NCBI RefSeq assembly: GCF_055900595.2
Contig: NZ_CM148325.1
DNA length: 64,000 nt
Strand: one strand, 5' to 3'
Part shown: positions 27,525 to 33,912 of the stretch, one piece after another
Numbering within the stretch: the stretch's first letter is position 1
How the letters are laid out: every line of letters begins with the position of its first letter
Notes under the pieces: model-generated
Database searches by the model: none
What the model saw: only the letters and a program-made list of their open reading frames with translations
What the model was told of the DNA's origin: nothing
Position numbers and translations under genes: made by a program

Positions 27525-28745
27525 TTAACTCAAGGTATGGGTTACTTCCTGAATTTTGTCACCATCCAGCTCATGTTCAAAGCTGCGCAGACGTTTGTAG
27601 ATAGACATCAACTCAACCAGCGTGGTCCATGAGTTAATCAGGTACTGAAAAGCACCGCGAACCTGACCAAAAACGTTGGTAATCTGCGTCATCAGGCCGA
27701 GCGTAATCGTACCGGCAACAATCGACGGAAACAGCAAGAACAAACCGAAAACGTTATCGACCTGCAAATAGAGAATGCGGGCGATGTTGAAATACATATA
27801 GTGAAAATAGAGGCGGAAATAGTTTTTCCGCACGGCGCTAAACAGCTCGCGTACCGTAGGCGGCGTCGCGCGCGATGCATCGTCTTCACCATAAACCAAC
27901 TCTTTACGGTAGGCAGCTTCTACACGCTGATTTTTAAACTCCAGTCCCGGCAGTTTGATCCCAACCACTGCCAGTAATCCGGTCCCCATCAACGACCATA
28001 CGATAGCAGCAATCACCAGACCATACGGAATATGCCCGACAATCGGCAGCTCTGGCACATGCGCAGAGAGCGTTACCAGTACCGGCAGGAAGGCGATCAA
28101 CGTCATAATAGCGTTGATAAAACTGACGCCCATATTCTCAAGCGTTGAAGCAAAACGCATGGTGTCTTCCTGCACACGCTGGGCGGCACCTTCGATATGA
28201 CGCAGTTGTTGCCAGTTCGCCATGTAATATTCGTTCATCGCCGTACGCCAGCGGAACACGTAGTGACTGACAAAGAAGTTGTTCAGCACACTGATCACCA
28301 CCGCGATCAGCGCAATCCCCAGAAAGACGCCCACTTCGCGGTAAAATTGTTCGATAGTGACTTTATGCGGCGAACTTAGCGCAGTTTGAATCAGATCATA
28401 AAACGGCGCATACCAGGCGTTGACGGCAACTCCAACTTCCACCAAAAACCAGGTGACGAAGATTATCAACGCAGTACCGAGTATTGACCAGTATTGCCAA
28501 CGATGCGGGCTATAAATAAACCAGAACAGTGCAAAAAGCCCTACGCAAACAATGTAGTAAGCGTAAAAAATCAGGAAATCTAACGACCAGAAACGCGCGG
28601 CGCTAATTGGGATCTGCCCGGAAGCTCCGGTGATGCGCGCCACCCAATCCCCCCCACCGGCTTGCCAGAAGATAACGGCAATCAATGCCCAAACAAAGGC
28701 CGAGAGAAAAAACGTTCCCGGCTTTGGGAAAAAAGACTTAAACAT
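27525..28745 (-). CDS. sbmA: peptide antibiotic transporter SbmA
   Basis: ORF track 27525..28751; start placed at [17 protein letters not shown] (406 aa). Confidence 0.93.
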
Positions 28746-29096
28746 ATGCACTCCTGCTAACTTCTTATCGTTTTAACAACTGCTGTGTATTAACCGCATG
28801 ACCGCTACAAAGAATCAGCCAAATGAAACCGCCCATTGTGACCCATAGCAAGGCGCATAGTTCGCCAGCCTGACCATAAGAATTGTTTCGACGGATTTCA
28901 CAAACCAAAGATTGTTTACATTAGCGGATTAACACGCGCAGGATCACAAATGCAGGCATTGGTGAGCAGGAAAAAGATCGTGTTTACGCGCCGTTACGTT
29001 TTTAACACTATTATTGCACTAATTCGCCCTTTGCAATCCATCAATGAGTAGTATAAATACGCTCAGTTACCTTCATTCAATCTATGGACACCACCG

Positions 29097-30254
29097 TTGA
29101 AACGTAGTCTGCTTTTTTCTGCCGTGCTTTGTGCGGCGTTATTGACCCCCGTCCATGCGGCGCAGCCGATCACTGAACCGGAGTTCGCCTCTGATATTGT
29201 CGATCGTTATGCCGATCATATTTTTTATGGCAGTGGTGCCACGGGGATGGCGCTGGTTGTTATCGACGGTAACCAGCGCGTCTTTCGCAGTTATGGCGAA
29301 ACGCGCCCGGGTAATAATGTTCGCCCGCAGCTGGATTCGGTCGTGCGTATTGCTTCGCTTACCAAGCTAATGACCAGTGAGTTGCTGGTGAAATTGCTCG
29401 ACCAGGGGACCGTGAAGTTAAACGATCCGCTAAGTAAATATGCTCCACCAGGCGCACGCGTGCCGACTTACAATGGCACGCCTATTACCCTGGTGAATCT
29501 GGCAACCCATACCAGTGCCCTGCCCCGTGAACAGCCGGGAGGTGTGGCACATCGTCCAGTGTTTGTCTGGCCAACGCGCGAGCAACGCTGGAAATACCTT
29601 TCTACGGCGAAGCTGAAAGCCGCGCCAGGCAGTCAGGCGGCATACTCTAACCTTGCGTTCGACCTGCTGGCAGATGCACTGGCGAATGCTTCCGGCAAGC
29701 CTTATACCCAGTTGTTTGAAGAGCAGATTACCCGTCCATTGGGGATGAAAGACACCACCTACACCCCCTCGCCGGACCAGTGCCGCCGTTTAATGGTTGC
29801 AGAGCGCGGTGCCAGTCCATGCAATAACACGCTGGCGGCAATTGGCAGCGGCGGAGTCTATTCCACGCCTGGCGATATGATGCGCTGGATGCAGCAATAT
29901 TTGTCATCTGATTTTTATCAGCGCAGTAACCAGGCAGATCGTATGCAGACGTTGATTTATCAGCGCGCGCAGTTTACGAAAGTGATTGGCATGGATGTCC
30001 CCGGCAAAGCGGATGCGCTTGGTTTAGGCTGGGTATATATGGCCCCGAAAGAGGGTCGTCCGGGGATTATTCAGAAGACAGGTGGTGGTGGCGGTTTCAT
30101 TACCTATATGGCGATGATCCCGCAGAAGAATATTGGCGCGTTTGTGGTGGTTACTCGTTCGCCATTGACGCGCTTTAAAAATATGAGCGATGGCATCAAT
30201 GACCTGGTGACTGAACTGAGCGGGAATAAACCGTTGGTCATCCCCGCGTCCTGA
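29097..30254 (+). CDS. ampH: D-alanyl-D-alanine carboxypeptidase/endopeptidase AmpH (class C beta-lactamase fold), apparent TTG start
   Basis: ORF track, 385 aa, MKRSLLFSAVLCAALLTPVHA signal peptide, SLTK active-site motif; start codon read as ttg. Confidence 0.92.
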   Translation: MKRSLLFSAVLCAALLTPVHAAQPITEPEFASDIVDRYADHIFYGSGATGMALVVIDGNQRVFRSYGETRPGNNVRPQLDSVVRIASLTKLMTSELLVKLLDQGTVKLNDPLSKYAPPGARVPTYNGTPITLVNLATHTSALPREQPGGVAHRPVFVWPTREQRWKYLSTAKLKAAPGSQAAYSNLAFDLLADALANASGKPYTQLFEEQITRPLGMKDTTYTPSPDQCRRLMVAERGASPCNNTLAAIGSGGVYSTPGDMMRWMQQYLSSDFYQRSNQADRMQTLIYQRAQFTKVIGMDVPGKADALGLGWVYMAPKEGRPGIIQKTGGGGGFITYMAMIPQKNIGAFVVVTRSPLTRFKNMSDGINDLVTELSGNKPLVIPAS

Positions 30255-30937
<683 letters not shown>

Positions 30938-30951
30938 AACCTATTTCTTCA

Positions 30952-33912
<2,961 letters not shown>

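Follow-up and report, generated by a model that had tools for sequence, protein, structure and literature searches.

The TTG start codon of ampH in Escherichia coli and its conservation in related enterobacterial genera

AmpH is classed as a DD-peptidase (a peptidoglycan DD-endopeptidase/carboxypeptidase) and not as a β-lactamase. AmpC and other class C β-lactamases are its distant relatives, homologous in fold and in active-site motif; AmpC chains are matched by the protein considered here at approximately 1e-17 to 1e-19, and its score of 92.7 bits against the class C β-lactamase equivalog lies below the cut-off of 415 bits. The closest solved relative is the structure 3ozh of the Yersinia pestis homologue, a β-lactamase/D-alanine carboxypeptidase (residues 31-374, E = 5e-152), with an alignment that starts only at query residue 31. 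Comparisons with AmpC and 3ozh are irrelevant to the ampH start codon.

About 3% of E. coli genes begin with UUG, and output from the three canonical start codons amounts to 10-100% of that from AUG. On the genome-wide scale, UUG starts tend to give way to AUG at a rate above the neutral one, and stronger Shine-Dalgarno sequences tend to offset sub-optimal starts. The typical UUG-initiated genes of E. coli are similar to ampH in using a canonical alternative start, which is read by the initiator tRNA and is expected to yield less translation than AUG. In contrast to the genome-wide trend, UUG of ampH has been kept across families, and its Shine-Dalgarno sequence stays minimal.

In K-12 MG1655, ampH (b0376, NP_414910.1, NC_000913.3) is annotated as a CDS at 395130..396287(-) with the same TTG start and 385 aa. 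The TTG start of this gene is already known, being recorded in the E. coli K-12 reference annotation. The fixation of TTG in E. coli and its deep conservation together with GGA are added here, the latter being a modest addition.

Start-site profiling data were also taken from the literature. In the INRI-seq technique, all K-12 initiation regions (-30 to +150), synthesized as a pool, were translated in a cell-free system, and a start was called where the 3' ends of reads accumulated 15 +/- 3 nt into the CDS. Table S2 of that study lists ampH b0376 (start 396287(-)) with 41.9, 43.6, 29.7, 44.4 and 43.5 CPM and with a peak of arrested ribosomes identified in 5/5 replicates. This peak belongs to TTG, because the out-of-frame ATG is located 13 nt away, beyond the tolerance of +/-3. 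The peak of ampH (30-44 CPM) is similar to those of neighbouring genes, so that an unusually poor translation of ampH from TTG is not evident. Table S3, the complete list of non-annotated start sites, contains no ampH entry. In the Ribo-RET results obtained in vivo (Meydan 2019), tabulated by the authors of INRI-seq, the ampH column is 0, with no peak, probably due to low ampH expression. The gene is also absent from the TRAINSPOTTER supplement and from the Salmonella riboproteogenomics supplement.

Reading frame and product of ampH

The window, that is, the whole stretch of DNA analysed (64,000 nucleotides), carries ampH between sbmA and iprA (yaiV), as in the K-12 and RMDEC465 annotations; the K-12 MG1655 neighbourhood, sbmA - ampH - iprA - yaiT, is the same as that in the window. 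The features of the gene and its start region are as follows:

29097..30254, + strand: ampH ORF, 385 aa with a TTG start, MKRSLLFSAV... (ORF listing)
29097..29099, + strand: TTG, assigned as the initiation codon of ampH (direct read, annotations, orthologs, INRI-seq)
29049..29051, + strand: in-frame TAG that closes the frame upstream of the ampH start (translation of 28977-29180)
29084..29107, + strand: out-of-frame ATG mini-ORF MDTTVET, overlapping the ampH start (translation)
29086..29088, + strand: GGA, putative minimal Shine-Dalgarno core 8 nt 5' of TTG (near-invariant in alignment A2)
29100..29102, + strand: AAA (Lys2), conserved A-rich second codon (ortholog counts, alignment A2)
29097..29159, + strand: predicted Sec signal peptide MKRSLLFSAVLCAALLTPVHA (inspection of the translation)
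29355..29366, + strand: active-site S-x-x-K motif, Ser87-Leu-Thr-Lys90 (translation; homology to class C β-lactamases/DD-peptidases)

On exact extraction, T29097, T29098 and G29099 form TTG within ccaccgTTGaaacgtagtctg, and the extracted context of this codon is atctatggacaccaccgTTGaaacgtagtctg. The initial annotation had proposed that ampH begins with TTG, and bases 29097-29099 bear this out, the first of them not being A. It had also reported a mismatch of one base between its own reading and the ORF track; the coordinate of the track (start 29097) proved right. The ampH gene of the window is correctly called with a non-ATG start, which results neither from a frameshift nor from a misreading.

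TTG is the first start-type codon 3' of the in-frame TAG at 29049-29051, and frame translation of the 15 codons between this stop and 29097 (YKYAQLPSFNLWTPP) gave no ATG, GTG or TTG. It is also the sole start-type codon in the frame that gives the conserved N-terminus of AmpH. The only nearby ATG, described earlier as out of frame and running into a stop, is indeed of this kind: it occupies 29084-29086, 13 nt 5' of TTG, and is followed after the 7 codons of MDTTVET by TAG at 29105-29107.

The translated ORF scores 695.2 bits against the NCBIfam NF007943 AmpH equivalog (cut-off 266). Its residues 1-378 are aligned with profile positions 1-380 of 380, and therefore the profile of the AmpH family starts at the ORF start. 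At the DNA level, 5,420 E. coli genomes have an annotated ampH that is 95-99% identical to it. The S-x-x-K motif is situated within the match to a degenerate DNA pattern at 29346-29374. By inspection, the predicted signal peptide consists of M-K-R, SLLFSAVLCAALL and T-P-V-H-A, followed by AQP, and shows an n-region made basic by K2 and R3, a core of hydrophobic residues and, at -3/-1, small residues (V-H-A); cleavage is predicted after VHA. Since the signal peptide is predicted to be cleaved, N-terminal proteomics of mature AmpH (AQPITEP...) would miss the initiator residue. The signal peptide of the window differs from that of K-12 by S15L and S18P (29139-29150).

Initiation at TTG is supported by the K-12/PGAP annotation, the AmpH model matched from residue 1, the invariance in orthologs and the INRI-seq peak. 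It may be concluded with high confidence that ampH is translated from UUG at 29097.

Upstream of the gene, a sigma-70 consensus scan of 28700-29200 called no promoter. The sequence TATAAATACGC at 29052-29062 is conserved, as judged by eye, 5' of ampH in Escherichia, Salmonella, Kluyvera, Trabulsiella, Enterobacter and others; it resembles a -10 region, with TTGCAA at 29031-29036, and the consensus scan called nothing there because the spacing is off. According to the literature, the divergent promoter region of sbmA and ampH (28752-29096) includes a predicted CpxR box, the expression of ampH being CpxR-dependent (PMC9600279), and a weak FlhDC ChIP peak without clear regulation (PMC4183435).

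Some other features of the window may be mentioned. The longest ORF of iprA (yaiV), at 30255-30923 (-), encodes 222 aa with ATG at 30923, and in K-12/PGAP the gene has 207 aa (624 nt) and a start 15 codons further in. An intact yaiT-like autotransporter of 982 aa occupies 30964-33912 (-), at the place where in K-12 an IS3 interrupts a yaiT pseudogene. The segment 45000-47000, with fbpC and an ABC-transporter permease, is present in about 980 of 5,426 E. coli genomes and thus belongs to an accessory region.

Conservation of TTG in E. coli and in other genera

The ampH allele of the window has about 97% DNA identity to that of K-12 MG1655, and the two 5' regions are identical across 29042 to 29127, without differences in the start region. 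Position 396287 of K-12, read on the minus strand, is T of the same ccaccgTTGaaacg. The comparison with K-12 envisaged in the initial annotation has thus revealed an identical TTG, annotated as the start there. PGAP starts ampH at the same base in the six other strains that were opened.

An 86-base query around the ampH start found 5,421 matching records, and C/T at 29082 was the only common polymorphism near the start. The 45 bases 29083-29127 recur without any change in 5,185 E. coli records, and a haplotype with A29106T, which also has TTG, is exact in 205 further records. The 45-nt megablast query passed over 207 records, as A29106T breaks its 28-base seed; they were recovered by blastn and a variant query. 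TTG was found in at least 5,390 of the 5,421 E. coli records. The variant strains sampled keep it in 3/3 cases, two of them being taken from the remaining 31 or so records (changes at 29094 and 29126), and the 45-mer in which ATG or GTG replaces TTG had 0 exact matches anywhere. The TTG start of ampH is effectively fixed in E. coli.

The substitution A29106T corresponds to Ser4Cys, a residue found in Enterobacter, and changes the TAG stop of the mini-ORF to TTG. Of 5,426 complete E. coli genomes, a single record (strain RMDEC465) has an ampH region with 99% identity or more, and only 18 records have such an sbmA; for the alleles of both genes, most genomes show 95-97% (window 27525-30254). These rare alleles of sbmA and ampH indicate that the window comes from an uncommon E. 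coli lineage.

Orthologs were searched for with the degenerate DNA pattern over the active-site motif against a collection of species-representative genomes. The pattern matches the window once, where chance would give no match, and the scan yielded at least 120 loci. The loci among the matches listed were distributed as follows:

AmpH orthologs (score 500 or more): 99
Too short upstream for assessment: 8
ATG-start orthologs: 26
Other assessable loci and the window: 65 + 1 = 66

TTG occupies the start-aligned codon in 66/66 of these assessable AmpH loci among the matches listed, in a species sample that is phylogenetically non-independent. The 66 loci represent, among the matches listed, 24 named genera of Enterobacteriaceae, Erwiniaceae and Yersiniaceae, plus Hafnia. 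In 62/66 of the listed loci TTG stands directly 5' of the Lys codon, and in the other 4/66 (three Yersinia and Ewingella) it stands one codon further 5' (TTG-CTG-AAA). The second codon in the same listed loci is AAA in 57, AAG in 5 and CTG in 4 of 66. In alignment A2, which includes one sequence per genus, the only invariant or near-invariant columns are those of GGA and TTGAA(A), TTGAA being invariant; the rest of the 5' region has a mean identity of 55%.

As a control, degenerate columns conserved at the amino acid level were considered: 0/20 of them keep one codon, and the commonest codon accounts for 26-85%. In the 19 loci with an in-frame upstream ATG among the matches listed, TTG is found at this position in 19/19 cases, compared with 12.1% of the Leu codons elsewhere in the gene. 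Since synonymous sites in the same genes are scrambled, this difference means that T of TTG is constrained at the nucleotide level. This constraint is best explained by the use of TTG as a start codon.

AmpH proteins of Edwardsiella and Morganellaceae belong to the same family (52-66% identity over approximately 340-375 residues, with S-x-x-K kept) and differ in their starts. In Edwardsiella, TTG is lost and the protein, MDT(H/R/P)FR..., has an in-frame ATGGAT start (L020, L025, L065); the start codon is relocated there within the same ATGGAT element. In Morganellaceae (Photorhabdus, Xenorhabdus, Providencia, Proteus and Arsenophonus), AmpH has an ATG start and a longer N-terminus that ends in a lipobox-like L-x-[AS]-C, so that this is probably a lipoprotein form. 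The ATG-start loci with a lipobox-like motif are the following:

L008, L009, L013, L029, L031, L033, L034, L047, L049, L052
L055, L082, L084, L098, L107, L108, L114, L119, L123, L125

Putative Shine-Dalgarno site and alternative explanations

The distance between GGA and TTG is 6-10 nt in 63/66 of the loci among the matches listed, with a mode of 8. The pairing of GGA with the 3' end of 16S rRNA is predicted at -3.0 kcal/mol, a value equalled or surpassed at 41% of random window positions. We infer that GGA is a weak Shine-Dalgarno site of ampH.

The triplet ACA at 29088-29090, 9 nt 5' of TTG, occurs in Escherichia, Citrobacter and Salmonella and is absent in Enterobacter. The table of the MazF regulon lists for ampH a cleavage site '9', which matches this ACA (Sauert et al. 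2016, PMC5001579). MazF cleavage at 29088-29090 would strip GGA and leave a 9-nt leader. The sequence AUGGA also resembles the A(N)GGA core of CsrA sites, and no link between CsrA and ampH was found in the literature.

The history of the start region may be read in another way. The ancestral start would be the ATG of ATGGA(Y), with the N-terminus M-D-x-x-x-L-K, and after an indel in the Escherichia/Citrobacter/Salmonella lineage the downstream Leu codon TTG would have taken over; ATG 29084 of E. coli would then be a relic, and it might still represent a tiny upstream ORF coupled to ampH. Such a history is suggested by the in-frame ATGGAY 12 or 15 nt 5' of TTG in Erwinia, Pantoea, Yersinia, Hafnia, Rouxiella and Ewingella, by Edwardsiella, which has that ATG only, and by the -14 class of loci, whose upstream ORF ends in TGA overlapping TTG, as is typical of translational coupling. 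Moreover, AT precedes GGA in 52/64 GGA-bearing loci (about 80%) among the matches listed, though U in that place cannot pair with the anti-Shine-Dalgarno sequence. Shine-Dalgarno function alone does not account for this retention of ATG in ATGGA, and the ATG may possibly be a second, lineage-specific start or belong to a coupling upstream ORF. However, the presence of TTG in all the listed loci where ATG is in frame, against a share of 12% among Leu codons, speaks for TTG as the start there too. The distance between ATG and TTG is 12, 13, 14 or 15 nt across genera, both in and out of frame, and ATG itself is changed to CTG, TTG, ACG or CAG in Cedecea, Pseudenterobacter, Y. thracica, Tenebrionibacter and Mangrovibacter, while GGA persists. 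With the distance and identity of ATG varying and GGA kept, ATGGA(Y) behaves as a Shine-Dalgarno spacer and not as a coding segment. ATG 29084 of E. coli has no Shine-Dalgarno pairing (+0.8 kcal/mol), INRI-seq gave no alternative start for ampH, and the stop of the mini-ORF is gone in 205 E. coli strains. An ancestral ATG start is unlikely on these grounds, and it concerns history, the present-day use of TTG in E. coli not being disputed by it. The out-of-frame mini-ORF was rejected, for want of support, as a functional element, as its phase and length vary and it has neither Shine-Dalgarno pairing nor an INRI-seq start, and the loss of its stop undercuts such a function further; the mini-ORF 29084..29107 is judged incidental.

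Other explanations dispute the use of TTG in E. coli itself. Both GTG at codon 10 (29124-29126) and ATG at codon 51 (29247-29249) exist in frame, and ATG is generally stronger, so that either of them could be the real start, TTG being merely the first start-like triplet. A start at codon 51 would, however, remove the whole signal peptide and about 30 conserved residues of the mature protein, and a start at codon 10 would remove the basic n-region. In addition, GTG of codon 10 is not conserved, being replaced by Ala or other codons in Citrobacter, Salmonella and Enterobacter, residues 22-50 are conserved as protein across genera, the AmpH profile covers residue 1 onward, and the INRI-seq peak corresponds to the annotated start with no alternative start listed; a downstream start is highly improbable. 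It is very unlikely that T29097 is conserved for a reason other than initiation, with TTGAAA functioning in DNA or RNA, for instance as a hexamer of the -35 type, as a site for a regulator or as a part of a structure sequestering the start. TTGAAA does match 5/6 positions of the -35 consensus, and a hairpin of UUCAAU (29076-29081) with GUUGAA (29096-29101) is predicted, but this hairpin gains no stability over shuffled sequence (z = 0.08; 104/200 shuffles fold as well), and Citrobacter and other genera do not preserve its 5' arm. A start-masking RNA structure was rejected for these two reasons. In any case, no other start codon can make the conserved signal peptide, so that TTG must be the start regardless of such elements. 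Finally, an error of sequencing or assembly, with A as the true base, has a negligible probability, being refuted by the identical sequence in thousands of independent complete genomes and by the failure to find an ATG allele.

Possible significance of the TTG start

In the mechanism proposed for ampH, the initiator tRNA would read UUG at 29097 as formyl-Met, in a minimal initiation region composed of GGA 8 nt upstream, UUG and AAA as an assisting second codon. The product would begin with Met-Lys-Arg and a hydrophobic signal peptide, whose removal is predicted on export to the periplasm. The weak codon and the weak Shine-Dalgarno sequence would together hold the synthesis of AmpH low, and TTG would be maintained by purifying selection against stronger ATG or GTG alleles.

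It is plausible, on the basis of this analysis, that TTG and the minimal Shine-Dalgarno sequence keep the output of AmpH low. The suggestion in the initial annotation that a non-ATG start would limit the translation of AmpH agrees with the general data on UUG starts and with the weak pairing of GGA. The gene has neither switched to AUG nor strengthened its Shine-Dalgarno sequence, suggesting selection on this particular gene for a low set-point. In our opinion, it may be tentatively suggested, with somewhat less than even confidence, that the start codon is a hard-wired dosage limiter, an excess of the DD-endopeptidase/carboxypeptidase being harmful and single-mutation ATG or GTG alleles being removed. 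No report of a start-codon swap specific to ampH was found in the literature searched.

The result on TTG of ampH is incremental and raises no new question. At the same time, ampH is a clean case of a sub-optimal start fixed over family-level divergence, against the genome-wide drift to ATG. If the dosage reading is true, the start codon of a cell-wall hydrolase would carry a translational set-point, and this would bear on safe levels of redundant peptidoglycan hydrolases and on the engineering of AmpH expression.
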